Shown here: positions 38,185-58,635 of the stretch, piece by piece
How positions within the stretch are numbered: position 1 is the stretch's first letter
Layout: each line of letters starts with the position of its first letter
Origin: Candidatus Portnoybacteria bacterium
GTDB taxonomy: Bacteria > Patescibacteriota > Minisyncoccia > Portnoybacterales > GWB1-42-6
Length of the DNA: 64,000 nt
Reading direction: 5' to 3'
Assembly (NCBI GenBank): GCA_028688325.1
Contig: JAQTYI010000004.1
Span: 8,638 to 72,637 of the forward strand
Translations under genes and position numbers: made by a program
Notes under the pieces: generated by a model
The model's input: only the letters and a program-made list of their open reading frames with translations
Databases searched by the model: none
Told to the model about the DNA's origin: nothing

Positions 38185-38982
38185 ATGGATTTTTCATATG
38201 CAATCATTTTGGGCGTCGTTGAGGGAATAACGGAGTTTTTGCCGATCTCTTCAACAGGGCACCTGATGCTGACGGCGCGTCTTTTGGATCTGGGCCAAAG
38301 CGAATTCTTGAAAAGTTTTGAGATCATCATCCAGCTGGGCGCGATCTTATCGGTGGTAGCTTTATACTGGCGGGAGCTTTTGGTCAAATGGGAGACAATG
38401 AAGCGCGTAGTCGTTGCTTTTGTTCCAACGGGGATTATCGGCTTGGTGCTGTATAAAATCGTTAAAGCTTATTTGCTGGGCAGTGAAACGGTGGTTTTGT
38501 GGAGTATGTTTTTGGGCGGATTATTTTTATTAGCGTTTGAATATTGGTACGGAAAAAAATCCCCCCTAACCCCCCTTTTACAAAGTGGGGAAAATAATAA
38601 ATTGGAAAATATCTCCTACGGCCAGGCCGCGGCGCTGGGTTTGTTTCAATCAATTGCGATAATTCCCGGCGTTTCGCGCTCGGCCGCCACAATTCTGGGG
38701 GGCTTATTCATGGGAATTTCTCGCAAAACAATCGTTGAATTTTCTTTTTTGCTGGCTGTGCCGACAATGCTGGCGGCCACCCTCCTCGATCTTTTTAAAA
38801 GCGCCGGTCAGTTTTCTTTGTCTCAGTGGGATTTTTTGGCTGTAGGTTTTTTTGTTTCTTTCGTTACGGCTTTGACTTCCATCAAGTTTCTGCTCAATTT
38901 TATCAAGAAGCATTCCTTTATCGCCTTTGGCGCTTATCGCATGGCGATTGCCTTGATTTTTTGGTTTTTTATTGTAAGATGA
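38185..38982 (+). CDS. uppP: Undecaprenyl-diphosphatase UppP/BacA with in-frame poly-C half-element
   Basis: VVEGITEFLPISSTGHLML. Confidence 0.85.
   Translation: MDFSYAIILGVVEGITEFLPISSTGHLMLTARLLDLGQSEFLKSFEIIIQLGAILSVVALYWRELLVKWETMKRVVVAFVPTGIIGLVLYKIVKAYLLGSETVVLWSMFLGGLFLLAFEYWYGKKSPLTPLLQSGENNKLENISYGQAAALGLFQSIAIIPGVSRSAATILGGLFMGISRKTIVEFSFLLAVPTMLAATLLDLFKSAGQFSLSQWDFLAVGFFVSFVTALTSIKFLLNFIKKHSFIAFGAYRMAIALIFWFFIVR
38560..38590. repeat. Poly-C element (left half plus degenerate right), in frame in uppP (encodes SPLTPLLQSGEN)
   Basis: tcccccctaaccccccttttacaaagtgggg. Confidence 0.55.
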
Positions 38983-39025: not shown

Positions 39026-40642
39026 ATGATAAACAAAATATTAGATTTCATAAAAGCCCGTCTTTATACCGTTTTAATCCTGGCGGCGATTTTTGCGGCA
39101 GCCGGTTTTTGGTATTATTCCAGCGTTTCCAAAAAATCATCTTATGAATTTGTTCGGGTGACGCGCGGCGATGTTTTGCAAATAGTGAGCGTGACCGGCA
39201 AAGTCAAACCGGCCGACAGCGTAGATTTGGCTTTTGAAAAAAGCGGGAAGGTGGCGTCAATCGCCGTGAGAGTGGGAGACAAAGTGGCAGCCGGACAGCG
39301 TCTGGCGACTTTGAGCAATTCCGATCTGGTCGCGCAACTGGCCCAAGCGCAGGCGTCCCTGGAGAAGGAAATTGTTAAACTGGCGGAATTAAAATCCGGC
39401 ACCAGGCCGGAAGAGCTGCAGATCGCCCAAACCACAGTAGCCAACGCCACTAAAACCTTGGCTGATGTCAAAAACAAAGCGGAGGTGGACCTGAACAACT
39501 ATTATGACGATGTCAAGGACATTTTGAGCGATGCATATGTAAAAGCCGATGATGCGGTGAACAAACAAACCGACGAGCTGTTCATCAACGATAACTCCAG
39601 CAATCCGAAATTGTCGTTTTATTCCAGCGAAGAAGCCACCTCAAACGCCGTATGGAAACGGCGCCAGGCCGGAACAGAGCTGGAGCAATTCAAGCAGGAG
39701 CTGGACGCCCTGGGGAGCGACCGCGCTGTCCTGGATTTGGCTTTGATCAAAAGCAAAGCGCATTTGGATAAAATTATGGATTTTCTAAACAGCGCCGCCA
39801 CGGCGGTCAACGAATCATCGGGGCTCACGGCAACCAATCTGACCAACTACAAATATTATGTGAACACCGGCCGCACGAATGTGAACACGGCGCTAACCGC
39901 CATTAGCACTCAAGGCCAATATATCGCGACGCAAAAAGCCGCCAACCAAAGCGATATCTCCGCCGCGCAAAATACGCTGGCCGCGGCCCAAGACCAATTG
40001 GCCTTGAAACAAGCCGGTTCAACAGCCGATGAAATTGCCGCTCAGGAAGCACAAATAAAATACGCCCGGGCCAATATGCAAAATTATGAAGCCGCTTTGT
40101 CAAAAACCGTCATTTTTTCTCCGCTTAACGGCATTGTCACGAAGCAAGAAATTGAGATAGGAGAAATTGTGGCGGCCAATGCTACGGTGATTTCGGTGTT
40201 GAGCGCGACTAAATTCGAGATTGAAGCCAATGTTTCGGAAAACGAAATAGCCAAAATCGTTTTAGGCGATACGGCGGCTATGACCCTGGACGCGCTGGGC
40301 CCGGCGGAAAAATTTACCGGCACCATCAGCGCCATTGATCCGGCTGAAACCGTGGTGTCGGGCGTCATTTATTATAAAGTCACATCGGTTTTTGACGCAG
40401 ATGACGCCAGAATAAAATCCGGCATGACGGTAAATATGGATATTCGGACGGATAAAAAGGAAAATGTTTTGACTTTGCCATACTACGCGGTTATGAGCCG
40501 GAACAGCGAAAAATTCGTTCAGGTTTTGACCGACGGCCGGTCTTCCGAAAAAACCGTGCAAACCGGGCTGGAAGGGGAAACAATGATTGAAATTACCGGC
40601 GGCTTGCAAGAAGGGGAAAACATCATCGTTTCAAAACAATAA
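39026..40642 (+). CDS. HlyD/MacA-family periplasmic adaptor (membrane fusion protein) with long coiled coil
   Basis: N-terminal TM, central coiled coil, C-terminal beta-barrel motifs. Confidence 0.72.
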   Translation: MINKILDFIKARLYTVLILAAIFAAAGFWYYSSVSKKSSYEFVRVTRGDVLQIVSVTGKVKPADSVDLAFEKSGKVASIAVRVGDKVAAGQRLATLSNSDLVAQLAQAQASLEKEIVKLAELKSGTRPEELQIAQTTVANATKTLADVKNKAEVDLNNYYDDVKDILSDAYVKADDAVNKQTDELFINDNSSNPKLSFYSSEEATSNAVWKRRQAGTELEQFKQELDALGSDRAVLDLALIKSKAHLDKIMDFLNSAATAVNESSGLTATNLTNYKYYVNTGRTNVNTALTAISTQGQYIATQKAANQSDISAAQNTLAAAQDQLALKQAGSTADEIAAQEAQIKYARANMQNYEAALSKTVIFSPLNGIVTKQEIEIGEIVAANATVISVLSATKFEIEANVSENEIAKIVLGDTAAMTLDALGPAEKFTGTISAIDPAETVVSGVIYYKVTSVFDADDARIKSGMTVNMDIRTDKKENVLTLPYYAVMSRNSEKFVQVLTDGRSSEKTVQTGLEGETMIEITGGLQEGENIIVSKQ

Positions 40643-40653
40643 TTCTTTCCGGT

Positions 40654-41370
40654 ATGCTCATCAAACTGGAAAACATAGCCAAAGATTACACCGACGAAGG
40701 CGTGCGCACGACCGCCTTGCGCGGCATAACGCTAACGGTTGAAGAAAGTGAATTTGTCGCCATTATGGGAGCTTCGGGGTCCGGCAAATCAACGCTGATG
40801 CACATTATCGGCTTTTTGGATAAAAAAACATCCGGCCGATATTTTTTTGACGGAGAAAACGAAAATGATTTTGACGACGCCAAGCTCGCCCAAATACGCA
40901 ATCAAAAAATCGGCTTCGTGTTCCAGGCCTACAATCTTTTGACCAGAACTTCGGTGTTGGACAATGTTTTGTTGCCAACCATCTATACGCCCCATTTAGA
41001 CGCCAAAGCCGCAGACAAAAAAGCGCGCCAGATTCTGGAAAAATTGCGCCTGTCCCATCGCGTTGACCATCAGCCCAACCAGCTTTCCGGCGGCGAGCAG
41101 CAGCGAGCCGCCATTGCGCGGGCGCTGATAAACGACCCTCGCCTGATTCTGGCGGACGAACCTACCGGCAACCTGGACAGCCGCTCCGGCCAGGAAGTGA
41201 TGGAAACGCTGCAGGACTTGAACGAAGAGGGCCATACTATCGTTATGGTCACGCATGAAAAATATGTGGCTGAGTGCGCTCGCCGCATCATCACTTTAAA
41301 AGACGGGGAAATGATTTCCGATCAAAAAGTGCTGGTTCGCCATGTCGCCAAAGACGGGCTCATAAAATAA
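40654..41370 (+). CDS. ABC transporter ATP-binding protein, MacB/LolD family
   Basis: [36 protein letters not shown]. Confidence 0.88.
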   Translation: MLIKLENIAKDYTDEGVRTTALRGITLTVEESEFVAIMGASGSGKSTLMHIIGFLDKKTSGRYFFDGENENDFDDAKLAQIRNQKIGFVFQAYNLLTRTSVLDNVLLPTIYTPHLDAKAADKKARQILEKLRLSHRVDHQPNQLSGGEQQRAAIARALINDPRLILADEPTGNLDSRSGQEVMETLQDLNEEGHTIVMVTHEKYVAECARRIITLKDGEMISDQKVLVRHVAKDGLIK

Positions 41371-41373
41371 TTT

Positions 41374-42606
41374 ATGCGTTTTTTTCAGATTATAAAAAAT
41401 ACTAAAAATAACCTGTCGCTGAACAAAACCCGGACATTTTTGACGATGCTGGGCATTATTATCGGCGTAGCGGCGGTTATTGCCATTGTTTCGGTGGGCG
41501 CCGGCGCCCAAGAATTATTGTTGGCGCAAGTTAAGGCCATGGGGTCCAATCTTATAGGCATTTTGCCGGGGGCGTCGGACGATAAGGGTCCGCCAGCGGC
41601 TGTTTTCGGGATAGAAGTGACCACTTTAAAATACGACGATGCTTTGGAAATCAGAAAGTTGCCCGATATCGTGGCAATTTGCGCCTATGTCACCGGCCGG
41701 GGAACGGTCGGTTATTTTAATCAAAACAAAGAGCTGAATTACACCGGCGTGCTGCCGGAATATCTGACCGTGGAAGACACGGCCGTCGCCAAAGGCCGCT
41801 TTATCAAACAAGAAGACAACGACAACATGGCGCGAAACGCGGTGTTGGGCAGCAAAGCGGCCAGCGATATTTTTGGCCAAGAAAACCCACTGGAAAAACA
41901 AATTAAAATAAATCAGATAACCTTCAAGGTTGTGGGAGTAATGACCGAACGCGGGGCCTCGGGGCTGCAAAATCAAGACGAACAAGTTTTTATTCCTCTA
42001 AAAATCGCTCAAAAAATAATGCTGGGGATAGACCATGTCGCTTTTATCCGCGCCAAGGTGGACAAGGAAGCAAATATAGAACCGTCTATCGGCCGAGTGA
42101 AAGATCTTCTTCGCTTCCGCCACCGCATCAAAGATGCAAGTAAAGATGATTTTTCCGTCCGCTCGACCGCCCAGGCCTTGGATATTTTGGGCTCCATCAC
42201 CCAAGCGTTAAAAATGTTTCTGGCGGCAGTGGCGGCAATCTCTCTCGTCGTAGGCGGCATAGGCATTATGAATATAATGTTTGTGACCGTTTCGGAGCGC
42301 ACAGGGGAAATCGGCTTGCGCAAGGCCGTCGGCGCCAAAAGAAAAGATATCCTTTTGCAATTTCTGGTTGAAAGCGCGGTGATGACTTCTTTCGGCGGGC
42401 TGATCGGCGTGGCGCTGGGGTTGCTGATCTCAGCGGCTATCGCTTTGGGAGTGAATTATTTCGGCTACGACTGGAAGCTGATAGTTGCCCCGCTTTCCAT
42501 TTTTTGGGCGGTTTTTATGGCGGCCGGAGTGGGCTTGGTTTTCGGCCTTTGGCCGGCCAACCGCGCTTCCTTGATGAGCCCTATGGAAGCGCTGCGGAAA
42601 CAATAA
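41374..42606 (+). CDS. ABC transporter permease, FtsX/MacB family
   Basis: MacB periplasmic domain plus FtsX C-terminal 3 TM. Confidence 0.8.
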   Translation: MRFFQIIKNTKNNLSLNKTRTFLTMLGIIIGVAAVIAIVSVGAGAQELLLAQVKAMGSNLIGILPGASDDKGPPAAVFGIEVTTLKYDDALEIRKLPDIVAICAYVTGRGTVGYFNQNKELNYTGVLPEYLTVEDTAVAKGRFIKQEDNDNMARNAVLGSKAASDIFGQENPLEKQIKINQITFKVVGVMTERGASGLQNQDEQVFIPLKIAQKIMLGIDHVAFIRAKVDKEANIEPSIGRVKDLLRFRHRIKDASKDDFSVRSTAQALDILGSITQALKMFLAAVAAISLVVGGIGIMNIMFVTVSERTGEIGLRKAVGAKRKDILLQFLVESAVMTSFGGLIGVALGLLISAAIALGVNYFGYDWKLIVAPLSIFWAVFMAAGVGLVFGLWPANRASLMSPMEALRKQ

Positions 42607-42651
42607 AAATTCTCCCTCTTAATATCTTAATATAAGAGGGAGAGAAAAGGT

Positions 42652-43917
42652 ATGAAATTTTTAACCATCGCCAAGCAATCAATTATCGCTTTGAGAGCCA
42701 ATAAACTGCGCTCGTTTTTTTCCATTCTGGGAATTGTTATCGGCGTGGCGGCGGTGGTGATAATTTTGTCCATGGGACAGGGGTTAAAGGGGCTGGTGAC
42801 CAACGAAATGAACGCTTTTGGGCCAAATCTTTTGGATGTGGCCGTAAAAATTCCGGGGGTCAGCCAAACTCAATCGGTCGCGTCCATGGTGCAGGGAATA
42901 AAAATCACGACTCTCAAAACCAAGGATATCAAAGACCTTAAAGACCCGAAGGCGTTTCCTTATATCGCGGCGGTTAATGGCCAGGCCATAGGTCAGGACT
43001 GGGTGGTCTACGGGAATAAAGAAAGAAGGGTTCTGGTCTATGGCTGCAGCCCGGATTATCCGAAGATTGTTAAAACCGCCAAATTGGCTTCCGGCCGGTT
43101 TTTTAACGATGAAGAAAACGACAGCTTGGCCAAGGTCGTCGTGTTGGGCAGTAATTTGGCAAACAAACTTTTTGACCAAGAAAATCCGCTGGGAAAAAAT
43201 GTCCGGCTGAAAGGAATAAATTTTAAAGTAGTCGGTGTTTTAAAGCCCCAGGGCGGCATGATGAGCTCGGCCGTAATGGATATGAACGAGTTCGTTTATG
43301 TGCCCCTGGAAGCCACCCTGAAAGAGCTTTTGGGCATTGATTATTTGATGGAGATGCACATAGATGTAAATGATGAAAAATATATCGGCCGCGCTTTGTC
43401 CGATGTCAGCCGTTTATTGCGGCGCAATCATAACATCACCGATCCGGATAAGGACGATTTTGAAATATTCACCATGGCGGAGATTTTAAAACGCGTTGAC
43501 CAGGTGAGCGCTATTTTGAATTTATTGCTGGGCTTTTTGGCGGCGATTTCCTTGCTGGTGGGCGGCATAGGCATTATGAACATTATGCTTGTTTCGGTGA
43601 GCGAGCGCACGCGCGAGATCGGCTTGCGAAAATCATTAGGCGCGACCGCCAACAATATTCTTTGGCAATTTTTAATAGAAAGCGTGGTTATCACGGGCAC
43701 GGGAGGAATTGTCGGCATAATTTTCGGCATTGCCGTTTCCACGCTCGTCGGCCTTGTTGTGCGCACACAGGGTCTGCCTGATTGGCCGCTGACCGTTTCT
43801 TGGCTGGCGGTCTTTGGCGCGTTTTTCCTGTCCGCCGTTATCGGGCTGGCATTTGGCGTTTATCCGGCTAAAAAGGCCGCTCAAAAATCTCCCATGGAAG
43901 CGCTGAGATACGAATAA
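42652..43917 (+). CDS. ABC transporter permease, FtsX/MacB family (second copy)
   Basis: Paralogous to 41374-42606. Confidence 0.8.
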   Translation: MKFLTIAKQSIIALRANKLRSFFSILGIVIGVAAVVIILSMGQGLKGLVTNEMNAFGPNLLDVAVKIPGVSQTQSVASMVQGIKITTLKTKDIKDLKDPKAFPYIAAVNGQAIGQDWVVYGNKERRVLVYGCSPDYPKIVKTAKLASGRFFNDEENDSLAKVVVLGSNLANKLFDQENPLGKNVRLKGINFKVVGVLKPQGGMMSSAVMDMNEFVYVPLEATLKELLGIDYLMEMHIDVNDEKYIGRALSDVSRLLRRNHNITDPDKDDFEIFTMAEILKRVDQVSAILNLLLGFLAAISLLVGGIGIMNIMLVSVSERTREIGLRKSLGATANNILWQFLIESVVITGTGGIVGIIFGIAVSTLVGLVVRTQGLPDWPLTVSWLAVFGAFFLSAVIGLAFGVYPAKKAAQKSPMEALRYE

Positions 43918-44747: not shown

Positions 44748-44776
44748 TTGACACGACTTTACTTTGCTGGTATAAT
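44748..44776 (+). promoter_or_regulatory. Consensus sigma-70 promoter TTGACA-N17-TATAAT giving a near-leaderless transcript
   Basis: Perfect hexamers; the -10 ends 7 nt before the ATG at 44784. Confidence 0.5.
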
Positions 44777-44783
44777 TGTATAT

Positions 44784-45857
44784 ATGGTAAAAATCGCTCA
44801 AATAAAGCAAAAAATCGTTGAATATTCGGCCAAAACCAAGATAATTTTCTTGGAGGTTTTCGTGCCGCAAAAAGGGAATAATTTTTTGCCCAAGGCGCTC
44901 AAATCAAAATATCTATTTTTATACAGCGCGTCTCTTTTAGCCGTTAAAATCGCGCTGATATCTTTGGTGCTGATATTGCCTGCAACCGATTTTTTTTCCA
45001 GCATCACGGCCAGCCGTTTGGTGTCTTTGATAAACCAAGAACGCCAAAGCAGGAACCTGCCGGCGCTGGCTTTAAATGACAGCTTAAATTCCGCGGCGGG
45101 CCTGAAGGTCAACGATATGGCAACGCAGGGTTATTTTGAGCACACCAGCCCCGCGGGCATCACGCCCTGGTTTTGGTTCAAGCAGATAGGGTATAATTAT
45201 GTTTTTGCCGGTGAAAATCTGGCCATGGGCTTTACCGAAACCGATGAGGTTTTTGCCGCCTGGATGAATTCGCCTACTCATCGCGCCAATATTTTAAATC
45301 CTAATTTTCGGGAGATGGGTTTGGCCGTGGGAACGGGCAATATCCAGAACCGGCAGGAAACATTGGCGGTGCTGGAATTTGGCAAGCAGGCGGCCCAGCA
45401 GCCGGCAAAAACACGGATTGCGCAACCTGTTCCGGCAAAAAATACGCCTGCGCCATCTGCTCCAAAATCCTCTCCGGCCGCTTCCCCAAAGCCGGCAATT
45501 TCTTCGCCGTCCGTTTCTGTTGCGCCCGCCGCTTCGCCGGCGACTGTTGCGGCGGTTGAAAAAACTTCGACCGAGCAGATTGATCTTAAAACTATCTTGG
45601 GCGCGGAGCCGCAAGCTCCCAAAGGCATCGCCAGGGCTGTCAGCCCGTCGGTTAACGCGGCCTACGCTCCGCGGGTTCTTGGCGCGTTCGTTTCCCGCTC
45701 CGACGAGATATTCAAAAGTTTATATCTGTATTTCACTTTGTTTTTAGCCATTGCTTTGTTGGTCAATATTTTCGTGAAAATGGAGATACAATATTGGACA
45801 ACCATCGGCGCCACGACATTTGTTATTTTGCTATCCGCGGTTTTGATATTTATATAA
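44784..45857 (+). CDS. CAP/SCP/PR1-like domain protein with Pro/Ala/Ser-rich linker and C-terminal TM anchor
   Basis: GYFEHTSPAG...GENLAMG...WMNSPTHRANIL CAP motifs. Confidence 0.62.
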   Translation: MVKIAQIKQKIVEYSAKTKIIFLEVFVPQKGNNFLPKALKSKYLFLYSASLLAVKIALISLVLILPATDFFSSITASRLVSLINQERQSRNLPALALNDSLNSAAGLKVNDMATQGYFEHTSPAGITPWFWFKQIGYNYVFAGENLAMGFTETDEVFAAWMNSPTHRANILNPNFREMGLAVGTGNIQNRQETLAVLEFGKQAAQQPAKTRIAQPVPAKNTPAPSAPKSSPAASPKPAISSPSVSVAPAASPATVAAVEKTSTEQIDLKTILGAEPQAPKGIARAVSPSVNAAYAPRVLGAFVSRSDEIFKSLYLYFTLFLAIALLVNIFVKMEIQYWTTIGATTFVILLSAVLIFI

Positions 45858-45896
45858 ATATTATTAGGATAAGCTCAGAGAAAAATCCGCATTTAT

Positions 45897-46008
45897 AATG
45901 TCAAATGACCAATGTCTAATGACAAATCCATGACAAAGTTCCAAATCCAAATTTTTGACATTTGATATTGGGATTTTATTTGTCATTGGAAATTTGTCAT
46001 TTTAAGCA
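45897..46008. repeat. Long AT-rich palindrome, CAATGACCAATG family (copy 2)
   Basis: tgtcaaatgaccaatgtctaatgacaaat...tccaaatccaaattt. Confidence 0.5.
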
Positions 46009-46044: not shown

Positions 46045-47163
46045 ATGGCTAATCAACCACTAAAAAATTTATTGGGCTGCCTTCCAAGGGCCGCCTTCCG
46101 CAATCTGCTCATCGGCGCGGCGGCTTTAATATTGGGCATATTACTGGGCGGGCCCAAGATTTATATCTCGCTGGCTTCGGCGATAATCGTCTTCTGCTTG
46201 ATGCTCATCCCTTATATCGCCATCACCTGGTGGAGCGTCTGGGCTCTGGCAAAAGACAAGGCCAAAGGAACATTGGTAACCGACGGGCCCTACGCTTATT
46301 CGCGCAACCCGATGTACGCGGCGATAATTTTTTTACTGAATCCCTCTCTGGGAATACTGTTCCGCTCCTGGATTTTACTGCTGGCCTGCGCGCCGATATA
46401 TTTTTCCTGGCGCAGCTATGTGCGCGGCGAGGAAAGGGGCGCGCTGGCGGCCAAGTTCGGCGCGGCTCATAATGAATATATGAAAAATACGGCGCGCTTT
46501 TTCCCGAACCTGCGCAAGATAAGTCCGGTATTATTTTACAGCGCAACGGGCTTTTTAATATTTTTGATAAGTTTTATTTTTTTGAATTTCAGCGCGCTTT
46601 ATTTGCGCTGGGTGGTTTTTGAAACAAAGGGCGAGATAGTTTATGATACGCCTTCTCCGCAAGCATCAGCTCCGAGCCAAAGCTTCCCGGAAAGTCCCGG
46701 ACAAATTTTTCCGCCTTCCGCCAATCAAGCCGATTATAACGCCGCGGACAATTCGATTTTTATAGAGAAGTTGGGCATCCGCGCTCCTTTGATACAGGTC
46801 TCCGGCACGACTCAGAAAGAACTTAACGACGGCCTGAACCAAGGCGTAATCCTGTATCCGGGCAGCGCTCTGCCGGAGCAAAGCGGCGAAGTAGTGCTTT
46901 CGGGCCACAGTTCGGTGTTTCCCTGGGTTAAGACCCGATACGGCCAAGTTTTTACTTTACTGGACAACCTGAAAGCGGGGGATATCGTTTCTTTGGTGTA
47001 TAACCACCGGCAATACGATTATAAAATAACGGACCAAGAAATTTTAACTCCCGATAAAGTAAAAATTTCCGATACGAACCGGCAAACTCTGAAATTGGTA
47101 ACCTGCTGGCCCATCGGCGCGGCCTTGAAGCGCCTCGTGGTTTATGGCGAGTTGATAAAATAG
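46045..47163 (+). CDS. Fusion protein: N-terminal isoprenylcysteine carboxyl methyltransferase-like membrane domain plus C-terminal sortase domain
   Basis: LVTDGPYAYSRNPMYAAII (ICMT/PEMT motif); C-terminus VVLSGHSS...LKLVTCWP (sortase TLxTC-like). Confidence 0.55.
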   Translation: MANQPLKNLLGCLPRAAFRNLLIGAAALILGILLGGPKIYISLASAIIVFCLMLIPYIAITWWSVWALAKDKAKGTLVTDGPYAYSRNPMYAAIIFLLNPSLGILFRSWILLLACAPIYFSWRSYVRGEERGALAAKFGAAHNEYMKNTARFFPNLRKISPVLFYSATGFLIFLISFIFLNFSALYLRWVVFETKGEIVYDTPSPQASAPSQSFPESPGQIFPPSANQADYNAADNSIFIEKLGIRAPLIQVSGTTQKELNDGLNQGVILYPGSALPEQSGEVVLSGHSSVFPWVKTRYGQVFTLLDNLKAGDIVSLVYNHRQYDYKITDQEILTPDKVKISDTNRQTLKLVTCWPIGAALKRLVVYGELIK

Positions 47164-47408
47164 GCCGCAAATCCAGACGAGATGCCGGTTGTCTTCGGCG
47201 CCGCTTTCAATAAAACTGAAAATCTTCCGGCGGGACGCCTCCTTGTTTTTTATGAATCAACGGGAAAATTATGATTTAAAACGAGAATATTCATAATCGG
47301 GCTAAGGTCTTGACAAGATTAAGGCAAATCCATTATAATACAAAATCCTCTCAAGGATGGTCAGCTGTTCTTTTATATCAAAATATACAGAAAGAAAGGG
47401 GGCGCACT

Positions 47409-47753
47409 ATGAAAAAGACCGCTATTTTGGTGTTTTTGGCAATTTTATTGTTGGGTGGCTGTCCGGCTCTGGCTTGCCAGAGATGCGAACGCATACTTGC
47501 CAAAGGATATGCCGCCGGCTTCACGCGCGAAGAAATCGTGCGAATAATCAGCGACGGCAACCCCAAGGCCCAAGTTTATCTTGGCCAAATGGAAACGCGG
47601 TTGGAGCAGGCGATTGCGAATAAAGGCGTTCGCTTTCGCGGCGAGTCGCGGGTACAGAACAATCCGTATTTCGTTGTCGGCAACGACAAAAACTTTAGAT
47701 ACAGCAACGAGGTGATAAAAGTTCCGCCAGACATTGAAGATGAAAGGAGGTGA
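47409..47753 (+). CDS. Lipoprotein (hypothetical)
   Basis: SD aaaggggg; lipobox LLGGC. Confidence 0.45.
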   Translation: MKKTAILVFLAILLLGGCPALACQRCERILAKGYAAGFTREEIVRIISDGNPKAQVYLGQMETRLEQAIANKGVRFRGESRVQNNPYFVVGNDKNFRYSNEVIKVPPDIEDERR

Positions 47754-47757
47754 GGGT

Positions 47758-48409
47758 CGTGGAAAAAACAAGAAGAGAATTTTTATCTTTTATTTTTGCC
47801 TGCGCCCTTACTTCGTCTTACGGGTGCGGAAAGAACTTTCTGGTGAAAAAGGATGAAAAACCGACGATAACCAGAGAGAAAACAAAGGATGCAAAGGTTT
47901 TATTTTTACATCGCTTTCCTCCGACTCAAGAATATAAAGAATTGGGTTTGAGCAAGGGCTACACTTTCTACTCCGCCCAGAAAAGAATCAAAAAAGAAGT
48001 CGGGGAATGGAAAGCGTTCGTTAACACTGAAAATGTGGTGCTCCGGAACTACGGAGCCAAGAACGGCAAGCGCAAGCTTTACGGTCCCGGCCATCTGAAA
48101 CCCGGGCATATCTTCTTTGCCAAATTTGTCAACGAAGACGCGGATGGCAACAGAATATATCGAGCCAGGTTCATCGGCCAGTGCGGCAACGAAATCCCCG
48201 ATGACGACTTGATGATTTTGGAGACGCCGGTGGTCATCACAGAAAAGATCGTCCACTTGGACACGGATTACAAACCGGCTTTGTGGGCCGGGCTGGGCGG
48301 GCTCTTGCTGGGGCTTGGCCTGGGGTATCTGTTCTGGTTCGGCACGACAAAAACAGTGATCGCTTCCGCCGGAAGCGCTTGCTCAACTGGCGGACCAGTC
48401 CCTCGCTGA
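47758..48409 (+). CDS. Hypothetical lipoprotein with C-terminal TM segment (GTG start)
   Basis: SD aaaggaggtga 8 nt before GTG; FIFACALTSSYGC. Confidence 0.4.
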
Positions 48410-48557: not shown

Positions 48558-50732
48558 ATGAATATGAAGCCGACTAATATAAAAACATATTTTAATATCA
48601 TTCAAAACAAACCGGCGTTGGTTGTTTTGGCCGTTATTGCCGTTTTGATCGGGCAATTGGCCTTGCCGCTCGGCGCGATGGCCGCGGATCCGGCCTTCAA
48701 CGCCTACACGCCCTACACCCACACGGAGCAAGCGGGCCGGGATTATTTTTTGCTGGATGTCAAAAACAACACCAAGGGCACTTCCTGGGGCTTCCCGGTC
48801 AACGCGGACGCAGGCGATGTTTTGACCTTTTATTTTTACTATCATAATTCAACGCCGGATACCGTCGCCTATAACACCGTATTGCAGATTGCGGCGCCCG
48901 GCAGCCAGAATTCTTATCAGACGGTTTCCGCCAATCTTTGGGCCGACAACACCACCAACGCTTCCCGGGTGAGCCCGATGAGCCAAAGCGTGGGAATAAA
49001 CCTGAGCACCGCGCAAACCTTGCAATATGTACCCGGCACGGCCCGATGGTATCCAAACCAGGCCGATTGGCGTATCGCCGCCTCAACGCCGTTTCCCAAC
49101 GGGCAAACAGAGTCCCAGCTTTTTGGCGGGGGAATAAATATCGGCTCTATCCAGGGTTGCTGGCCTTATTCGGGCGCAATCGTTTTTCAAATGGCTGTCG
49201 GCTCCACCGCCGGCTCGCCGAATTTGGCGCTTTCCAAAATGGTCCGTAATCAAACTCAAAGCCAAAGCGGTTATTCAAACAGCGCCAACGCTTATTCGGG
49301 CGACCGTTTGACCTTTCAAATTCAAGTTTCAAATTCGGGCAATGTCGCCGCCAACAATGTCATCGTTCGGGACGCGCTGCCCTCCCAATTGAATTATGTT
49401 TTCGGTTCAACCTACAATAACAATTTTTCTGCGGCCGACGGCATTGTCGGCGGGGGAATAAATATCGGCTCTGTCGGTCCCGGCGCCACCGCTACCGTTT
49501 CGTTTGACGCCACGGTTAATTCTTCGTATTCCGCACAGACCATAACCAACACGGCCTATGTTAGCGCCGATCAAATGAGCGAACGCAACTCTTCCGCTTC
49601 GGTTTATTTGCAACCAACTTCCGCTTCCTCCGGTTCCTTAACCATCAACAAGACCGTGCGCAATTACACATACGGCTACGGCAATTTCGCCGAAAGCGTC
49701 AATGCCACCAACAACGACCGGGTAACTTTCCAGATACAGATAAGCAACAATAGCAATTTTAACGCTTACAATGTTATCGTTTCGGATTCGCTGCCTTCGG
49801 GACTGTCTTTTGTGCCCGGCACGGCGCGTTTGGATAACGGCTATATTTCCGACAGCATTATAACTTCCGGCGGAGTGAACATCGGTTCAATGTATCCCGG
49901 CGCCACTCGCACCATTTCGTTTGACGCGACAGTCGGTTATTTGGGCACGGGCTATAACAATCAAACCTATACCAATTATGCCTATGTTCGCGCCGACCAG
50001 ATCAACGAACGCAACGATTCAGCCACGGTCTATGCTTCCCAGTCGGCTCCTTACACTCCTTATTATTCTTCCCCGACTTATTATTCCAATATGGTGTTAA
50101 CCAAAACGGTGCGCAATTTAAGCGCCGATCAAACCGGTTTGGCGAGTGTTGCCAATGCACAGATCGGCGACCGGCTGCTGTTCGCCATCCAGCTGGTTAC
50201 TTCGCCAAGCGGCGCCAACCAATACAACCAAGTCAATAATGTCCGCGTTTGGGATATTTTGCCGTCGGGCCTGACCTACACGCCCAGCACAGCGCGCATG
50301 GACGGCGGCCTGGTCAGCGATTCTTTGGTTTCGGGAAACGGCATAAGCGTCGGCACGCTTTTTTCCAATCAAACCAAAACCATCACCTTTGAGGCCACGG
50401 TCAATTCCTACGGCGGAAACCAAACGATAACCAACTATGGCTACGCTTCGGGCGACGGCATCGCCCAGCAATCCGCATTCGCGCAGGTGCTGACGGGGAA
50501 TACTGTTTATGTCGCGCCGGCAGCAGTTTATCCAACCCAGGTTGTTAAGGGCGCTTCGGTTCAAGCCGTCACCGGCGGCAACGACCTGGCACGCAATATT
50601 GCCTTGTCGCTTATCATATCCATATGGGGAATCTTCGCGTTATACCTCTATATGGAGCACGAAAACTTCTGGAAGGACTTGCGCTTTAAATTCATTCTCT
50701 GGAAGATTCGACTCAAAGAAAAAGCGATGTAA
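48558..50732 (+). CDS. Cell-surface protein with repeated DUF11-type conserved-repeat domains, signal peptide and C-terminal TM anchor
   Basis: At least four GDRLTFQIQVSNSGN...NVIVRDALPSGL... repeats. Confidence 0.55.
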   Translation: MNMKPTNIKTYFNIIQNKPALVVLAVIAVLIGQLALPLGAMAADPAFNAYTPYTHTEQAGRDYFLLDVKNNTKGTSWGFPVNADAGDVLTFYFYYHNSTPDTVAYNTVLQIAAPGSQNSYQTVSANLWADNTTNASRVSPMSQSVGINLSTAQTLQYVPGTARWYPNQADWRIAASTPFPNGQTESQLFGGGINIGSIQGCWPYSGAIVFQMAVGSTAGSPNLALSKMVRNQTQSQSGYSNSANAYSGDRLTFQIQVSNSGNVAANNVIVRDALPSQLNYVFGSTYNNNFSAADGIVGGGINIGSVGPGATATVSFDATVNSSYSAQTITNTAYVSADQMSERNSSASVYLQPTSASSGSLTINKTVRNYTYGYGNFAESVNATNNDRVTFQIQISNNSNFNAYNVIVSDSLPSGLSFVPGTARLDNGYISDSIITSGGVNIGSMYPGATRTISFDATVGYLGTGYNNQTYTNYAYVRADQINERNDSATVYASQSAPYTPYYSSPTYYSNMVLTKTVRNLSADQTGLASVANAQIGDRLLFAIQLVTSPSGANQYNQVNNVRVWDILPSGLTYTPSTARMDGGLVSDSLVSGNGISVGTLFSNQTKTITFEATVNSYGGNQTITNYGYASGDGIAQQSAFAQVLTGNTVYVAPAAVYPTQVVKGASVQAVTGGNDLARNIALSLIISIWGIFALYLYMEHENFWKDLRFKFILWKIRLKEKAM

Positions 50733-50815
50733 TTCGGCTCGCCGCCCTGCGTTTTGCGGGGCGGTTTTTTGTTTGCCGGAATATGAATAAAGCTTGACAC
50801 GGTATGTTATAATGA

Positions 50816-51370: not shown

Positions 51371-51472
51371 GTCATCCTGAGCACATTCGCTTCGCTCAGC
51401 ATAAACTCTGCGAAGGATCTAAAAATAGATTCTTCGCTGCGCCCCGCAGCCGCGGGCTTCGCTCAGAATGAC
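51371..51472. repeat. GTCAT-family element; right TIR supplies the upstream ATG of the next ORF
   Basis: gtcatcctgagc...cttcgctcagaATGACc. Confidence 0.65.
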
Positions 51473-51482
51473 CGAAATCATT

Positions 51483-52853
51483 ATGTCTCTGCAAAAATTA
51501 ACGATTCAGATCAAAGGAATGCATTGCCGCTCCTGCGAAATACTGCTGGAGCAAAGCATCTCCAAAATACCGCGCGTGGAAAAATGCGAGGCGGACTGGC
51601 AAGCGGGAACGCTGCTCGTTTATTTTTCCGCCGGACAAAAACCGTCCGAAAATGAAATCGCCGAAATAATACGCGAAGCCGGATACGAAATCGGCATAAC
51701 TGAAAAGCCGTCTCTTTTCAGTAAAAACCCCAAAGATTATAAAGATCTGCTGATAGCGTTCCTTTTCCTGATAGGCGCCTACTTTATTTTCAGGGGCCTC
51801 AACTTGCCGGGCATAAATCTGCCCGCTCTTTCCGATGGGATAAGCTTTCCGATAGTTTTGCTCGTCGGCTTGGCCGCGGGATTTTCAACTTGCCTGGCGC
51901 TTGTTGGCGGGCTGGTTTTGGGCGCGGCGGCCAAATATGCCAAAGACAACCCCGATGCCGCGCCGGGCGAAAAATTCCGCGTGCATATCTTGTTCAACCT
52001 GGGCCGTATCGCCGGTTATATGTTTTTTGGCGCCTTGCTGGGAGCATTGGGCTCCGTTTTCCAATTATCTTCCTTTGTAACCGGATTCATAACGGTTCTG
52101 GTCGGCGCGGTAATGCTGATAATGGGCCTACAGCTTACCAATATCATTCCCCGCATCAGCCATTGGAAGCTGACGCTGCCCAAGGGCATCAGCCGGGCGT
52201 TGAGAATCCATAATGATCCCGGCAAATACAGCGATAACAATGCTATGGCGCTTGGCGCGATGACTTTTTTCCTGCCTTGCGGATTCACTCAGGCAATGCA
52301 GCTTTACGCCATAAGTTCCGGAAATTTTGCGGCTGGCGCACTCATTATGGGGCTTTTCGCCCTGGGCACAGCCCCGGGACTTTTAAGCATCGGGGGTCTC
52401 GTGTCATCGTTCAAAAAAAACGCGGCAGGCAAATTTTTCAAGTTTGCCGGCGTGGTGGTTGTGGCCTTGGCTTTGTTTAATATCGGCAACGGTTTTAATC
52501 TGACGGGGTGGTCCGGGAGTTTATCGGCCTTAACCAATCCTCCAAGCACGACTGCGGCGGTAAATACGGACTTTGCGCCGATCGAGAACGGCAAACAGGT
52601 CGTCAGAATGGTTGAGAGCAATTCCGGCTACAGCCCTAATCAATTCACCATCAAAAAAGGCGTGCCGGTGCGTTGGATAATAGACGCTCAGGCGCCATAT
52701 TCGTGCGCTTCCAGTATCGCAATGTCCAAGTTTAACATACGCAAAACTTTGGCGGCAGGGGAGAATATCATTGAATTCACTCCGGCTGCCACCGGCCGGA
52801 TAGATTTTTCCTGCGCCATGGGAATGTATCGTGGAGCTTTTAATGTGAAATAA
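51483..52853 (+). CDS. HMA (MxCxxC) domain fused to a DsbD/CcdA-like transmembrane region and a C-terminal cupredoxin-like domain; putative copper-handling membrane protein
   Basis: IQIKGMHCRSCE; multi-TM region with a CGF motif; start could alternatively be 51468. Confidence 0.55.
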   Translation: MSLQKLTIQIKGMHCRSCEILLEQSISKIPRVEKCEADWQAGTLLVYFSAGQKPSENEIAEIIREAGYEIGITEKPSLFSKNPKDYKDLLIAFLFLIGAYFIFRGLNLPGINLPALSDGISFPIVLLVGLAAGFSTCLALVGGLVLGAAAKYAKDNPDAAPGEKFRVHILFNLGRIAGYMFFGALLGALGSVFQLSSFVTGFITVLVGAVMLIMGLQLTNIIPRISHWKLTLPKGISRALRIHNDPGKYSDNNAMALGAMTFFLPCGFTQAMQLYAISSGNFAAGALIMGLFALGTAPGLLSIGGLVSSFKKNAAGKFFKFAGVVVVALALFNIGNGFNLTGWSGSLSALTNPPSTTAAVNTDFAPIENGKQVVRMVESNSGYSPNQFTIKKGVPVRWIIDAQAPYSCASSIAMSKFNIRKTLAAGENIIEFTPAATGRIDFSCAMGMYRGAFNVK

Positions 52854-52877
52854 AACATAATTTACTAAGCTTCTAAA

Positions 52878-55259
52878 ATGAAAAAAACAATAGAACTGAA
52901 AATTTCCGGCATGCATTGCGCCTCCTGCGTAACGCTTAACGAGCGCGCCTTGAAAGCCGTTGCGGGCGTGGAAAAAGCGAGCGTCAATCTGGCGGCCGAA
53001 AAGGCCTTCGTCGTCTTTGACGACGCCAAGACCGATGTCGGCGCGCTGATAGAAACAATAAACAAAACCGGCTACGACGCCCGGGTGGCGCCGGAAAACG
53101 ATTCTGATGGCGAAACGGCGCGGCAAAGAAAAGCGATCGATTCACTGCGCAATAAATTCATCTTGAGCTCGGCCTTGAGTGCACCGATGCTTTATTTTAT
53201 GCTCTTTGATTTCATCAAGAGCTTGCCTGGAAGCAGCGTATTGGCGCCATATATCGGTATTATTTCTCTCGTTTTAACAACGCCCATGCAATTTATAATC
53301 GGCGCCAGATTCTATAAGGGCCTGTGGTCGTCGCTGAGGATGAGGACCTTCAATATGGATTCGCTTATTGCCATTGGCACAACCACGGCTTATGCCTACA
53401 GCGTAATAAATTATGCTATTTACGCTATAGGCAATAATTCTCTTATCGGCCTAACAGGAAAAATTCCCGATCTGTATTTTGAGACCGCGGCATTCCTTAT
53501 AACTTTTGTGATTCTCGGTAAATGGCTGGAAATGAAAACTACGGGCAAGACATCGGACGCCATAAAAAAACTGATGGGCCTGCAAGTCAAAACCGCCAGA
53601 GTCGTGCGCAACGGCCAAACAATGGATATCGCCATTGAGGAAGTGAAGCGCGGCGATATCGTGGTGGTGCGCCCCGGAGAAAAGATCCCGGTTGACGGCA
53701 TCATCACCAAAGGTTCTTCGGCGATAGACGAATCGCTGGTCACGGGCGAAAGTTTGCCCGTAGAAAAAAAGCTCGGCGACAGCGTTATCGGCTCAACGCT
53801 CAATAAAGTTGGCAGTTTTGAGTTTGAAGCCAAGCGCGTGGGCAGCGAAACCACGCTGGCGCAGATTATCCGCCTGATAGAGGAGGCACAGGGCTCAAAA
53901 GCGCCCATCCAGGGCTTTGCCGACCGCATCTCGGCCTATTTTGTGCCGACAGTCATCGGACTCGCCATTGTAACCTTCCTGGCTTGGTTTTTTGTCTTTG
54001 GCGCGCCGCTGAGCTTTGCCCTGATGGCCTTTACCGCCGTTATCGTCATTGCCTGCCCTTGCGCTCTGGGACTGGCCACGCCGACTTCTTTGATGGTCGG
54101 CACAGGCAAAGGAGCTGAATACGGCATCCTGATAAAAGGCGGCGAACCCCTGGAGGCGGCCTGCAATATTAACACCATAATCTTTGACAAGACAGGCACG
54201 CTGACCAAAGGCAAACCAACCGTTACCGATATTATATCGGTAACGGAATTTTCAATTTCCAATTTCCAATTTCCAAAAAATTACGGAAACGAAGAAAAAA
54301 TATTGCAAGTGGCCGCATCCATTGAAAAAAACTCGGAGCACCCTTTAGCCGAGGCCATAGTCAAGCATGCGCAAGACAAAAAGCTGGAGCTGTCTTCAAT
54401 AGAAAAATTTATGGCCATACCGGGCAAGGGAATCCAAGCGACGATCAATAATGAAAAATTCATTTTGGGCACCAGAAAATTAATTATTGAGAATCGATTG
54501 AATATCTCAAAAATCGAAACCAAGCTTAACGAATTGGAACGGCAGGGAAAAACCGCGATGATACTGACAACCAAAGAAAATATCCTTGGCGCCATCGCCG
54601 TGGCCGACACGGTCAAAGAAACATCCAAAGAAGCCGTGGCCAAGCTCAAGGAGATGCATATAGCAGTTTATATGATAACCGGCGACAACGAACGCACGGC
54701 CCGCGCCATCGCCGAGCAAGTGGGTATTGCCAATGTTTTAGCCGAAGTTCTGCCGCAAGATAAAGCCAATGAAGTCAAAAAATTGCAAAATTCAGGCAAG
54801 AAAGTGGCAATGGCGGGAGACGGCATCAATGACGCGCCGGCATTGGCGCAAGCCGACCTGGGTATCGCCATGGGTTCGGGCACGGATGTGGCCATGGAAA
54901 CGGGCGGCATCGTTTTAATGAAAAGCGACTTGAATGATGTGGTGGCGGCCTTTGAGCTGGCGCGCCAGACAATGAGCAAGATAAAGCAGAATATGTTTTT
55001 CGCGCTGTTTTACAATGTTATCGGCATTCCCATCGCCGCACGCGTTTTCGCTTTTGCCGGACTCATCTTAAAACCGGAATTGGCGGGGCTCGCCATGGCC
55101 CTAAGCTCCATTTCGGTCGTTAGCAATTCTCTTTTGCTGCGCTATTTCCGCCCCGGCAAAAAAAACTACGCCTCGATGTTTGCGCCGGTAGTTATGGTTT
55201 TGATTTTCACCTTCCTATTTGTGGAATTTGCGCGCCTGAGCTCGCAAATGGGAAATTAA
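52878..55259 (+). CDS. copA: Copper-translocating P-type ATPase
   Basis: [28 protein letters not shown]. Confidence 0.9.
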
Positions 55260-55307: not shown

Positions 55308-56411
55308 GTGAACCGATCACAACTAAACAAATTTATAACCTACCTGCAAAAAAGCGACTGGTCGGTATTTGGACCGGTTTTTACGACCGAGAAAGTCGAG
55401 GAGCTTTCACCGTTTTTGTCGGCACATATGCCTTCGGCTGTAAAAAAGACCGGCCAGATATTGATAAAGGGGATATCAAATCCCGACGAACTGAACCTGG
55501 ACGGGCAATTGCCTTTTTATTCCTTCAAACGGTTTTTTGTGCCGGAAAAAGAGGGGCTTTTTGATTACCAAAACAATAAATTAAGAGATAAAAAATCAGT
55601 TTACCCTGAGCGCAGTCAAAGGGCGCTGGTCGGCATGAATATTTTGGACATGAAAGCCGTGAATCTTTACGACCAGGTTTTTGAGAAAGACCCGTATTAC
55701 CAGGCCAGGCGGCGCAATATCCTCATCGTCGGCTATTCGTTGACGCCAGAAATAGAAAATAATATTTTTGAACACAAGTATGAAGAGGATATTCTGGAAC
55801 ATTTGCCTTTTGACATTTTTTTGGCAGATTATAACGCCCCCTCGTCCCGCGAACTGCGGAACTCGCCCCCTCTTAAATTAAGAGGGGGGTCGGGGGGGTT
55901 ATATAAAGTTTTTACTGGAAGCATAAAAGGCCAACGGATTCTGGAGCACTTTGGCTATAAGGACTATGAGCACATCCAGTTCAGCGGACCGATCAAGGAG
56001 GGGGAGGCGGACAAAAGGATGGAGCGCTTGCGCGACCGGTTAAAAAATCACCATAATTTAAAAATCTGGGAGGAATTGGGCCAGCGCTGCATCGAATGCG
56101 GCAAGTGCACCCTGGCCTGCCCAACCTGCTTTTGCTTTCGCATAGACGATGCTCCCGCGATCAAAGAAAACTTGGGCGAGCGTTCGCGCTGCTGGGATTC
56201 CTGCTATTATCAGGAATTTTCGGAAGTCGTCGGCGGGCATAAATTTCTGGACAACACCGCCAAACGCATCCATTTTTGGTATTTCCATAAATTCGCCAGG
56301 ATTCCCGATGAATTTAATTTCATGGGCTGCGTGGGCTGCCATCGCTGCGCCGCGGTCTGCCCGGTGGGAATAGATATAAATAAAGTGTTGGAGGACATAG
56401 AAAATTCTTAG
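55308..56411 (+). CDS. hydB: Sulfhydrogenase beta-like subunit (HydB/AsrA-like) with two 4Fe-4S motifs and an in-frame poly-C element
   Basis: CIECGKCTLACPTCFC and CVGCHRCAAVCP; ~367 aa like archaeal HydB. Confidence 0.55.
   Translation: MNRSQLNKFITYLQKSDWSVFGPVFTTEKVEELSPFLSAHMPSAVKKTGQILIKGISNPDELNLDGQLPFYSFKRFFVPEKEGLFDYQNNKLRDKKSVYPERSQRALVGMNILDMKAVNLYDQVFEKDPYYQARRRNILIVGYSLTPEIENNIFEHKYEEDILEHLPFDIFLADYNAPSSRELRNSPPLKLRGGSGGLYKVFTGSIKGQRILEHFGYKDYEHIQFSGPIKEGEADKRMERLRDRLKNHHNLKIWEELGQRCIECGKCTLACPTCFCFRIDDAPAIKENLGERSRCWDSCYYQEFSEVVGGHKFLDNTAKRIHFWYFHKFARIPDEFNFMGCVGCHRCAAVCPVGIDINKVLEDIENS
55862..55900. repeat. Poly-C/poly-G hairpin element, in frame in hydB (encodes SPPLKLRGGSGGL)
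   Basis: ctcgccccctcttaaattaagaggggggtcgggggggtt. Confidence 0.65.
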
Positions 56412-56415
56412 AATC

Positions 56416-57246: not shown

Positions 57247-57490
57247 TCATTAAAAAATAATTATTAAAAATAACGGATGCGCCGATAACGAAACTATCCG
57301 TTCACAATCGGCGGCCCTTCGTAATTTACAGGAAATATGCGAAAATTCAAATTGATGCTGGGCGACGATCTTATGGATCTATTGCCGCCAATGCTAACCT
57401 CTCTTTTTCTTATCGGCGGAGTTATCTCGTTAATCATTAAGAATTTTTAGCGCTCATTCCTATGATTTTTGAATTTGAGCGCAGCGAATT

Positions 57491-57685
57491 ATGTGCCTGA
57501 CGATTCCCAAACAAGTCGTTTCCGCCGGAAATAATTCCGTCCGCATCCGGGCCGGCAAAAAAACCGAATCAGTCGGCACCATTTTGGCGGTCAAAAAAGG
57601 GGATTGGGTGCTCACGCAAAACAGCATCATCATCAAAAAGATCACCGCCAAGCAGGCAAAAGAGATAAATAATTTCCTTAAATAA
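57491..57685 (+). CDS. hypC: Hydrogenase maturation factor HypC
   Basis: MCLTIP N-terminus, ~64 aa. Confidence 0.72.
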   Translation: MCLTIPKQVVSAGNNSVRIRAGKKTESVGTILAVKKGDWVLTQNSIIIKKITAKQAKEINNFLK

Positions 57686-57692
57686 AATTACT

Positions 57693-58629: not shown

Positions 58630-58635
58630 AAAAAA

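Follow-up and report, generated by a model that had tools for sequence, protein, structure and literature searches.

This study concerns a fused sortase gene in 64,000 nucleotides (nt) of DNA from a Candidatus Portnoybacteria bacterium, a groundwater-type ultrasmall bacterium; the whole stretch is called the window. The gene is an uninterrupted ATG-to-stop open reading frame (ORF) on the plus strand and encodes 372 residues. Its product joins a membrane module of the isoprenylcysteine carboxyl methyltransferase (ICMT)/phospholipid methyltransferase (PEMT) superfamily to a C-terminal sortase domain, and it belongs to a cassette encoding a compact set of five proteins. In the window, the cassette runs from a promoter-like site through the CAP gene, a 187-nt spacer, the fusion gene, a second promoter-like site, the small1 and small2 genes and the CLIPPER (DUF11) adhesin gene to a terminator-like hairpin (Table 1). 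The NCBI nr database holds an identical protein under the name 'sortase [Candidatus Portnoybacteria bacterium]'. Other members of the family are also annotated as 'sortase', and in one case as 'putative isoprenylcysteine carboxyl methyltransferase'.

The original prediction, made from the sequence of the window, had described a fusion of a methyltransferase-like membrane domain of about 170 residues and a sortase domain of about 150 residues. Both domain calls stand, and their extents are corrected as given in Table 1: the ICMT-like core is shorter, and an extra transmembrane (TM) helix and a stalk lie between it and the sortase domain. The predicted motif G-x-Y-x-x-x-R-N/H-P-x-Y is present as G81-P-Y-A-Y-S-R87-N88-P89-M90-Y91, with RNPMY at nt 46303-46317. 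The protein also contains L-K-L-V-T-C354-W-P, whose Cys codon occupies nt 47104-47106.

The module consists of two helical hairpins (residues 16-63 and 90-118) and a cytosolic C-terminal helix. Hydropathy and the positive-inside rule predicted an N-in topology, in which the first hairpin is followed by a cytosolic loop (64-89) bearing GxY..RNPMY, and the second by another cytosolic region (119-160) bearing EE..FG..Y..P and 8 Lys/Arg. A fifth TM helix (161-187 in this prediction) then crosses the membrane, and the remainder of the protein lies outside. Along this path the module motifs are G81xY83, R87-N-P-M-Y91, S108-W109, E129-E130 (nt 46429-46434), F138-G139..H142..Y145 and F152-F153-P154. 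The site for S-adenosylmethionine (SAM) is thus predicted to be cytoplasmic and the sortase extracellular, with exactly one TM helix separating the cytosolic region of the module from the outward sortase. This N-in five-TM layout is the sole arrangement that places a SAM-using site inside and a sortase outside. The fifth TM helix is the counterpart of the usual N-terminal sortase anchor. Behind it, residues 196-228 of the stalk have a predicted local distance difference test score (pLDDT) below 50 in the full-length AlphaFold2 (AF2) model; identity in the linker is 32% among homologues, and its lengths differ by tens of residues.

Homology search returned about 83 clusters of proteins that match the fusion in length and domain order and share 38-77% identity, in NCBI, JGI, ENA and Logan assemblies with contigs of up to 654 kb. 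Full-length fusions from 76 clusters were aligned and span the same range of identity. The fusion occurs in 12 GTDB species representatives (L001-L012), and all fusion-bearing lineages are Patescibacteria. An exhaustive search with a profile of the N-terminal domain found further fusions (P0099-P0117), diverged to roughly 30% identity, and all long ones tested carried a C-terminal sortase. Conservation at the protein level extends to the junction region, the fifth TM helix with its invariant N181. The fusion is genuine and ancient. A frameshift or an assembly chimera that joined two genes, the artefact against which the original prediction had been set, was rejected and deserves practically no credence: colinear copies of the ORF recur in over 80 clusters drawn from independent assemblies, and its junction is conserved.

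The original prediction had called the architecture unusual, which is a fair description. The hidden Markov model (HMM) of the N-terminal domain matched no ORF in the approximately 65 stand-alone sortase loci of candidate phyla radiation (CPR) bacteria that were examined, and a search of the literature for a sortase-ICMT/PEMT fusion found no description of one. We also considered a split version, in which a mini-ICMT gene lies beside a stand-alone sortase gene. It is unsupported, as none was seen in these loci, and no relative showed the two parts as separate genes.

Table 1. Features of the cassette, parts of the fusion protein and one further gene, in nt positions of the window
Feature	Position	Strand	Basis and remarks
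UppP-like undecaprenyl-diphosphatase candidate	38185..38982		putative, labelled by N-terminal motif
Perfect sigma-70-type promoter-like site ahead of CAP gene, TTGACA-17-TATAAT with TG	44748..44776	+	12/12 matches
CAP/YkwD-domain membrane protein	44784..45857	+	Pfam CAP E 6e-19; adjacent to or overlapping fusion gene in L001, L004-L007, L009, L010, L087-L092
Fusion gene: mini-ICMT module, TM, stalk, sortase	46045..47163	+	ORF; AF2 full-length pLDDT 81.5, predicted template modelling score (pTM) 0.68
Residues 1-158: 4-TM ICMT/PEMT-superfamily module	46045..46518	+	profile against 4A2N, Foldseek, motif conservation, topology
Residues 159-187: fifth TM helix, inside to outside, N181 invariant	46519..46605	+	topology, AF2 model, alignment
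Residues 188-236: juxtamembrane segment, then Pro/Ser-rich stalk, disordered, length-variable	46606..46752	+	AF2 pLDDT, alignment
Residues 237-372: sortase domain; H288 (nt 46906), C354 (nt 47104), R363 (nt 47131)	46753..47160	+	Pfam, invariant triad, Foldseek
Second perfect promoter-like site, ahead of small1, TTGACA-18-TATAAT	47310..47339	+	12/12 matches
small1: small predicted lipoprotein, signal ...LLLGG|C	47409..47753	+	homologues at same position in L002, L007, L008, L012, L087, L090, L091, L093
small2: predicted lipoprotein, one C-terminal TM, short cytoplasmic tail with Cys208 (nt 48380), ...SACSTGGPVPR	47759..48409	+	signal, topology, homologues
CLIPPER (DUF11)-repeat surface protein, 724 residues, N-terminal signal peptide	48558..50732	+	Pfam DUF11 E 2e-34, three repeats
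Strong intrinsic-terminator-like hairpin closing the cassette, 11 pairs, 8 G-C, T run	50741..50765	+	sequence scan

The sortase domain and the ICMT-like module

Pfam matched its sortase family PF04203 to residues 238-370 (E 2e-24, 86.1 bits versus a cut-off of 26.6), covering profile positions 1-124 of 125, and the general NCBIfam model TIGR01076 (sortase_fam) scored 53 bits against a cut-off of 39.35. H288, C354 (in LVTCWP) and R363 were invariant in all 76 full-length fusion homologues. In the AF2 model of the sortase domain, most 10-residue blocks had a pLDDT of 80-93, with one dip to 53 at residues 291-300. Foldseek aligned the domain with crystal structures of sortases C, A, D and E (E 2.5e-11 to 2e-9, target TM-score 0.55-0.77). 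The predicted C-terminal sortase ending in LKLVTCWP was therefore confirmed by the PF04203 match and Cys354, and the intact Cys/His/Arg triad on the alignment leaves that call standing.

None of the NCBIfam class models reached its cut-off (class D 63.0 versus 165, SrtD 66.1 versus 140, class E 47.1 versus 160, class C 46.8 versus 160, class F 22.7 versus 166), so the domain belongs to no established class. Its assignment to one class was rejected, since Foldseek does not tell the classes apart either. The domain shares with the sortases of MEROPS C60/PF04203 the fold, the His-Cys-Arg triad, the TLxTC-type motif (LVTCWP) and a predicted location outside the cell behind an N-terminal TM helix. 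Inspection of the sequence by eye found no lid motif, which distinguishes it from class C sortases. It differs from classical sortases in its anchor, which is a 5-TM module with an enzyme fold rather than a single helix.

A profile of the N-terminal 200 residues matched the crystal structure of Methanosarcina ICMT (Ma-ICMT, 4A2N); the alignment had E 4.6e-12 and covered 155 positions (profile 2-156 on chain residues 29-193). The same profile matched chain G of 8XKU (TAM46) with E 1.9e-9 and insect ICMT (5V7P) with E 7e-4. The AF2 model of the N-terminal domain (pLDDT 88.8, pTM 0.80) gave the same order in Foldseek, with 4A2N as the top match (probability 1.00, TM-score 0.52-0.54, 157 columns), followed by 8XKU_G and 5V7P. 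The module motifs fall in register with GxYxxxRHPxY, SxW and EE..L...FG..Y..Y...RLFP of 4A2N, and many homologues exceed the Pfam cut-offs for ICMT or PEMT in precomputed tables. At the profile level, we take membership of the ICMT/PEMT superfamily to be established by these sequence comparisons. Searched more widely, the N-domain profile finds 16,270 representatives at 50% identity.

Like Ma-ICMT and the eukaryotic ICMT/Ste14 (5V7P), the module has the ICMT fold, in which a helical hairpin bears the RHPxY-hydrophobic-EE and FG..Y..Y..P motifs at its cytosolic side. It differs in having only four TM helices: it has no counterpart of helix M1, and the alignment begins at 4A2N residue 29. It also differs in that the window's protein is fused to a sortase and reads RNPMY...EE...FGAAHNEY...FFP, where Asn stands for the His of the family motif and His for one Tyr, and in that the cassette shows no sign of prenylation or CaaX machinery.

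In those members of the family that have been characterised, SAM is contacted by the RHPxY His and by one Glu of the EE pair (PMC11069360). Among the 76 full-length fusions, the cytosolic motif positions were largely kept: R87 in 73, P89 in 73, Y91 in 64, E129 in 65, and E or D at position 130 in 73. In the C-terminal part of the motif region, F138 was kept in 69, G139 in 60, Y145 in 69 and P154 in 73. The most divergent fusions all carry RHP[MF]Y...EE...Y..Y...FFP. About 90% of members thus retain the cytosolic SAM-site motifs, including fusions at roughly 30% identity. This retention across deep divergence leans towards a retained methyltransferase site, as a passive anchor would not need these motifs. 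By this pattern of conservation, most members probably carry a module that is an active methyltransferase and not a mere anchor.

Sorting signals of the adhesin cassette

The CLIPPER/DUF11 domain forms isopeptide-bonded stalks in fibrillar adhesins and pilins, and typically occurs together with sorting signals (PMC12617251). The CLIPPER protein of the window ends with AVTG (residues 670-673, nt 50565-50576), a TM helix (680-699) and an amphipathic basic tail of 25 residues (700-724). A CLIPPER protein with [VL]xG...A[VLQ]TG, a TM helix and a basic tail was present at 10/10 loci with enough downstream sequence (the loci counted were the window, L002, L009, L012, L029, L087-89 and L090-L093). 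These C-termini follow the pattern V[KL]G-x4-A[VLQ]TG-[GSAP], then about 6 residues, the TM helix, often E[YHN], and an amphipathic basic tail of 22-27 residues. The order of motif, TM helix and basic tail is shared with sortase substrates, and AxTG resembles the class E motif LAxTG. The first position of the motif varies (Q, A, R, K or T), which differs from known sortase substrates. These sequence features make the CLIPPER adhesin a probable sortase substrate, as the original prediction had suggested for its DUF11 protein.

Unfused CPR sortases in the same data set adjoin small proteins with canonical LPxTG signals. Their cytoplasmic tails have 5-11 residues, with one of 24, as against 22-27 for the substrates of the fused sortases (Mann-Whitney p = 0.004). 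Long, conserved cytoplasmic tails are thus associated with sortases that bear a module facing the cytoplasm.

One relative (L092, 11821-15867) has two tandem CLIPPER genes. The product of the first ends with AVTG, a TM helix and a tail, and that of the second (...NPENSTPARR) has no sorting signal; it could be a secreted or tip subunit, or the gene could be a pseudogene. A VLG[AT] box, found at the C-terminus of the CAP proteins as well, lies ahead of AxTG in CLIPPER proteins and, among substrates of unfused CPR sortases, ahead of LPxTG in some (L063-L065). Judged from the sequences, it may be an extended CPR sorting-signal element.

A second cassette protein, small2, also extends a tail into the cytoplasm, by prediction on the same side of the membrane as the ICMT-like site. 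The tail contains a Cys near the C-terminus, with no CaaX box. This Cys was invariant in 15/15 further clusters (P0244-P0258), mostly in the form PCPPGxPAPR, and the Cys tail was also found in loci L002, L004, L008, L009, L087, L090, L091 and L093. L012, whose fusion lacks the SAM-site motifs, is the exception: small2 there ends right after the TM helix and the Cys tail is gone. Past the stop codon, the +1 frame reads ...SYNPSYSPTPR, a sequence that looks like a decayed tail without Cys.

The CAP gene is the conserved upstream neighbour of the fusion gene. The two abut or overlap in L005, L007, L009, L010 and L087-L091, and a CAP gene stands beside even the most divergent fusion examined (L095), in divergent orientation. 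It is missing from the cassette in L008, L012 and L093. The CAP protein is built from an N-terminal TM helix, an extracellular CAP domain, a Pro/Ala linker, a P[RK]VLG box (nt 45669) and two C-terminal TM helices. The original prediction had listed it among possible sortase substrates. We rejected it as a canonical substrate, because it lacks an xTG motif, although the P[RK]VLG box is there, and ends with two TM helices; we regard it as a tightly linked partner. Its C-terminal module (45669-45857) reads P[RK]VLG[AVT]F.S+SDE, TM, VKI+IQ+W, TM and ends in ...LIFI. This module is common to L001, L004-L007, L009, L010, L087 and L090-L092.

Role of the methyltransferase-like module

We hold, with moderate confidence, that the fusion protein is the dedicated sortase of a conserved surface-adhesin cassette of Portnoybacteria-type Patescibacteria, in which the single-helix anchor has been extended by a working mini-ICMT that methylates a carboxylate of the pathway. 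The sortase would cleave the neighbouring CLIPPER/DUF11 adhesin at AVTG|G and transfer it to the envelope or to another subunit. The mini-ICMT would act as a SAM-dependent O-methyltransferase and methyl-esterify the carboxylate of a membrane-embedded pathway component at the inner face of the membrane. Candidates for the methyl acceptor would be, in descending rank, the sorting-signal tail or TM remnant of the adhesin, the Cys tail of small2, and a polyprenyl-linked acceptor such as lipid II.

The original prediction had left two choices, namely coupling of substrate modification with transpeptidation, or a methyltransferase fold that is just an anchor. The motifs kept across divergence lean towards the retained site. 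The long cytoplasmic tails of the substrates also speak for the working module, as does the co-loss of SAM motifs and Cys tail in L012, which is suggestive only. One form of coupling is excluded by the predicted topology: the SAM site is cytoplasmic and the sortase extracellular, so the two cannot act simultaneously on the same end of a substrate. As they lie at opposite membrane faces, any coupling must run through a membrane-spanning or cytoplasmic part of a partner. The methyl acceptor, any coupling of the two activities and all else beyond architecture and context are what we infer.

Several observations count against a working methyltransferase, and some of them would suit an inert anchor or scaffold, in which the module lacks catalysis and serves as a multi-pass anchor or docking platform for the sortase. 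It may, for example, bind the substrate TM helix, the C-terminal helices of CAP or lipid at the conserved outer face. As a single sequence, the window's protein stays below the Pfam thresholds at residues 72-139 (PEMT, PF04191, 22.3 bits versus 25; ICMT, PF04140, 17.5 versus 24). The NCBIfam equivalog isopcys_mtase (NF040696) matched with E 5e-10 at 39.5 bits versus a cut-off of 160 and only in the C-terminal half of the model; at equivalog level the module does not appear to be a bona fide protein-S-isoprenylcysteine O-methyltransferase (EC 2.1.1.100). Position 88, the SAM-contacting His in relatives, varies (H39, N22, S7, Y4, R3, D1) and is Asn in the window. In the lineage P0081-83, which includes L012, both cytosolic motifs are deleted, and the TM core, LN[IL]AF..SW and an intact sortase are kept; P0075 has lost the EE..FG..Y..Y segment and kept its sortase. 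The sortase can therefore work without methyl transfer. Moreover, the highest conservation of the module lies at the outer face, where the mean top-residue frequency is 0.81 in the GGPKIYI loop and 0.85 in the LNPAL turn, compared with about 0.5-0.56 in the cytosolic regions overall. This would also fit a scaffold or docking role, and the outward-facing conserved surface may dock the sortase, the substrate helix or lipid. The adhesin tails show no conservation of their C-terminal residues. Stand-alone mini-ICMT genes have no consistent association with neighbouring sortase genes, and the joint loss of SAM motifs and Cys tail in L012 is a single evolutionary event, for which the sister contigs are too short to repeat the comparison. 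Even so, we consider the inert anchor, the main rival, rather unlikely. The residues kept by about 90% of members (R, P, EE/ED, F, Y and P) are those that line the SAM site in ICMT structures, and the cytosolic loops have no obvious structural need for them. The Asn at the His position keeps hydrogen-bonding capacity.

Chance could also have joined a mini-ICMT gene with its own lipid substrate to a downstream sortase gene, the product being kept as harmless. The module has the same size as a large population of stand-alone bacterial mini-ICMTs of 150-170 residues (647 representatives at E <= 1e-10), and the C-termini of these proteins coincide with the start of the extra TM helix of the fusion. 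Those inspected were not in sortase contexts: P0112 lies on a 1.1-kb contig, P0113 in a non-sortase context, and P0116 4 kb from an unrelated sortase. We nevertheless find a chance fusion improbable, as the gene has persisted through deep divergence, has never been seen split, always stands in the same adhesin cassette and has a conserved junction helix. A conditioning of the acceptor is judged a trace more doubtful still. Here the module would bind lipid II in its lipid tunnel and methyl-esterify a stem-peptide carboxylate at the inner leaflet before flipping, which, like the amidation of lipid II, would mark or prepare the nucleophile for the sortase. Sortases use lipid II as acceptor, and ICMT-family enzymes act on the carboxylates of isoprenoid- or lipid-bearing amphiphiles at the cytosolic face. 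The window also encodes the UppP-like undecaprenyl-diphosphatase candidate of Table 1, which would suit this model. However, stem-peptide carboxylates are farther from the membrane than that of prenyl-Cys, and the long substrate tails and the Cys tail of small2 are left unexplained. We know of no methyl-esterified peptidoglycan precursor.

A more specific form of the methylating sortase is a counterpart of CaaX-type C-terminal processing, in which the module methylates a carboxylate of a cassette protein and thereby gates transpeptidation across the membrane. We offer it tentatively and consider it unlikely. The substrate may be the small2 tail, ...PCPPGxPAPR, after lipidation and/or trimming, or alternatively the tail left by cleavage at AVTG. 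No prenyltransferase or CaaX protease gene was found in the cassette or within +/-9 kb in the relatives examined.

Known systems offer partial parallels to the proposed system. RhlM of Paraburkholderia is a rhamnolipid carboxyl methyltransferase, an ICMT-family membrane enzyme and the first bacterial one with an identified substrate (PMC11069360). It methylates an amphiphile carboxylate other than prenyl-cysteine, so bacterial members can be active on other carboxylates that partition into membranes (PMC11069360); RhlM differs in being a stand-alone protein in a glycolipid biosynthesis operon with no link to protein sorting. In Staphylococcus aureus, the Abi/CaaX-protease-like membrane proteins SpdA, SpdB and SpdC, homologues of a eukaryotic enzyme of CaaX processing, influence the display of sortase-anchored surface proteins, including protein A, according to the passage of PMC5854430 that cites Frankel et al. 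2010. On that passage's account they are a precedent for CaaX-type machinery touching a sortase pathway, although they belong to the Rce1-like protease family rather than to ICMT and are not fused to a sortase. TAM46 (At5g59500; 8XKU chain G) of the chloroplast Ycf2-FtsHi import motor, the second-best match among solved structures (Foldseek probability 1.0), is an ICMT-like membrane module that forms part of a protein-trafficking machinery. It is eukaryotic and plastid, has seven TM helices and forms a separate subunit without a sortase. Exosortase, archaeosortase and rhombosortase systems resemble the cassette in having a polytopic enzyme encoded beside substrates with a C-terminal motif, TM helix and basic tail. 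There is no homology, and the polytopic protein is the protease there, whereas here the sortase domain is the protease and the polytopic part has the methyltransferase fold.

What is new is a classical sortase with a probably active mini-ICMT as its anchor, inside a conserved adhesin cassette. Specialists on sortases would find this architecture surprising. Few contextual clues to function are as strong as a stable gene fusion, and this one ties the mini-ICMT to sortase-mediated display of CLIPPER adhesins in Patescibacteria, organisms with a poorly understood envelope biology and a life attached to other cells. The ICMT family is very large in bacteria, and RhlM is the only bacterial member with an identified substrate according to PMC11069360, which makes the fusion a rare functional handle. 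An active module would give the sortase pathway a SAM-dependent step on the cytoplasmic side, in parallel to the link between Spd proteins and surface display in S. aureus. If the CaaX-type reading were true, it would add a new post-translational modification to the sortase pathway and the first protein substrate of a bacterial ICMT-family enzyme. If the module is only an anchor, the fusion is a curiosity of domain architecture.

Other features of the window

The two promoter-like sites of the cassette coincide with the TTG 'starts' of the CAP and small1 ORFs in a list made mechanically. Translation most likely begins at ATG 44784 for CAP and at ATG 47409 for small1.

In relatives the CAP and fusion genes abut or overlap, unlike in the window with its 187-nt spacer. 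This spacer contains an imperfect palindrome of about 120 nt (45882-46002) made of TGACAAAT/ATTTGTCA units, with an RNA minimum free energy of -32.6 kcal/mol (z -3.05). A second copy lies in another intergenic spacer (62794-62998), where a 24-nt arm at 62843-62866 matches with 1 mismatch and 0 such matches are expected by chance. The palindrome looks like a small repeated element of the REP (repetitive extragenic palindromic) or MITE (miniature inverted-repeat transposable element) kind, or like a shared operator. No riboswitch or other RNA family was found near the fusion gene, and only three tRNAs were found across the window.

A DsbA-like thioredoxin gene precedes the cassette in most relatives. 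Sortases are common in CPR bacteria, where they have been linked to oxidoreductases of the DsbA/VKOR type (PMC6744442). The window itself has, ahead of the cassette, a MacAB-like ABC export set (39026-43917) with a periplasmic adaptor, an ATPase and two FtsX-type permeases, which also occurs in L003 and L010; in most other relatives the DsbA-like gene is directly upstream in its place.

Downstream of the cassette, two genes at 51468-55259 encode a metal-handling pair, a membrane protein of 461 residues with an N-terminal heavy-metal-associated (MxCxxC) domain and a P-type ATPase of 793 residues with an N-terminal MHCASC. This pair probably serves copper export. A gene set resembling soluble [NiFe] hydrogenases (55308-61562) also lies just downstream of the cassette and is syntenic in L002, L012, L029 and L091-L093. 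It comprises an Fe-S subunit, an FAD/NAD-binding subunit, an EamA transporter, DUF6390 and the small and large hydrogenase subunits, and HypC is encoded nearby in relatives.

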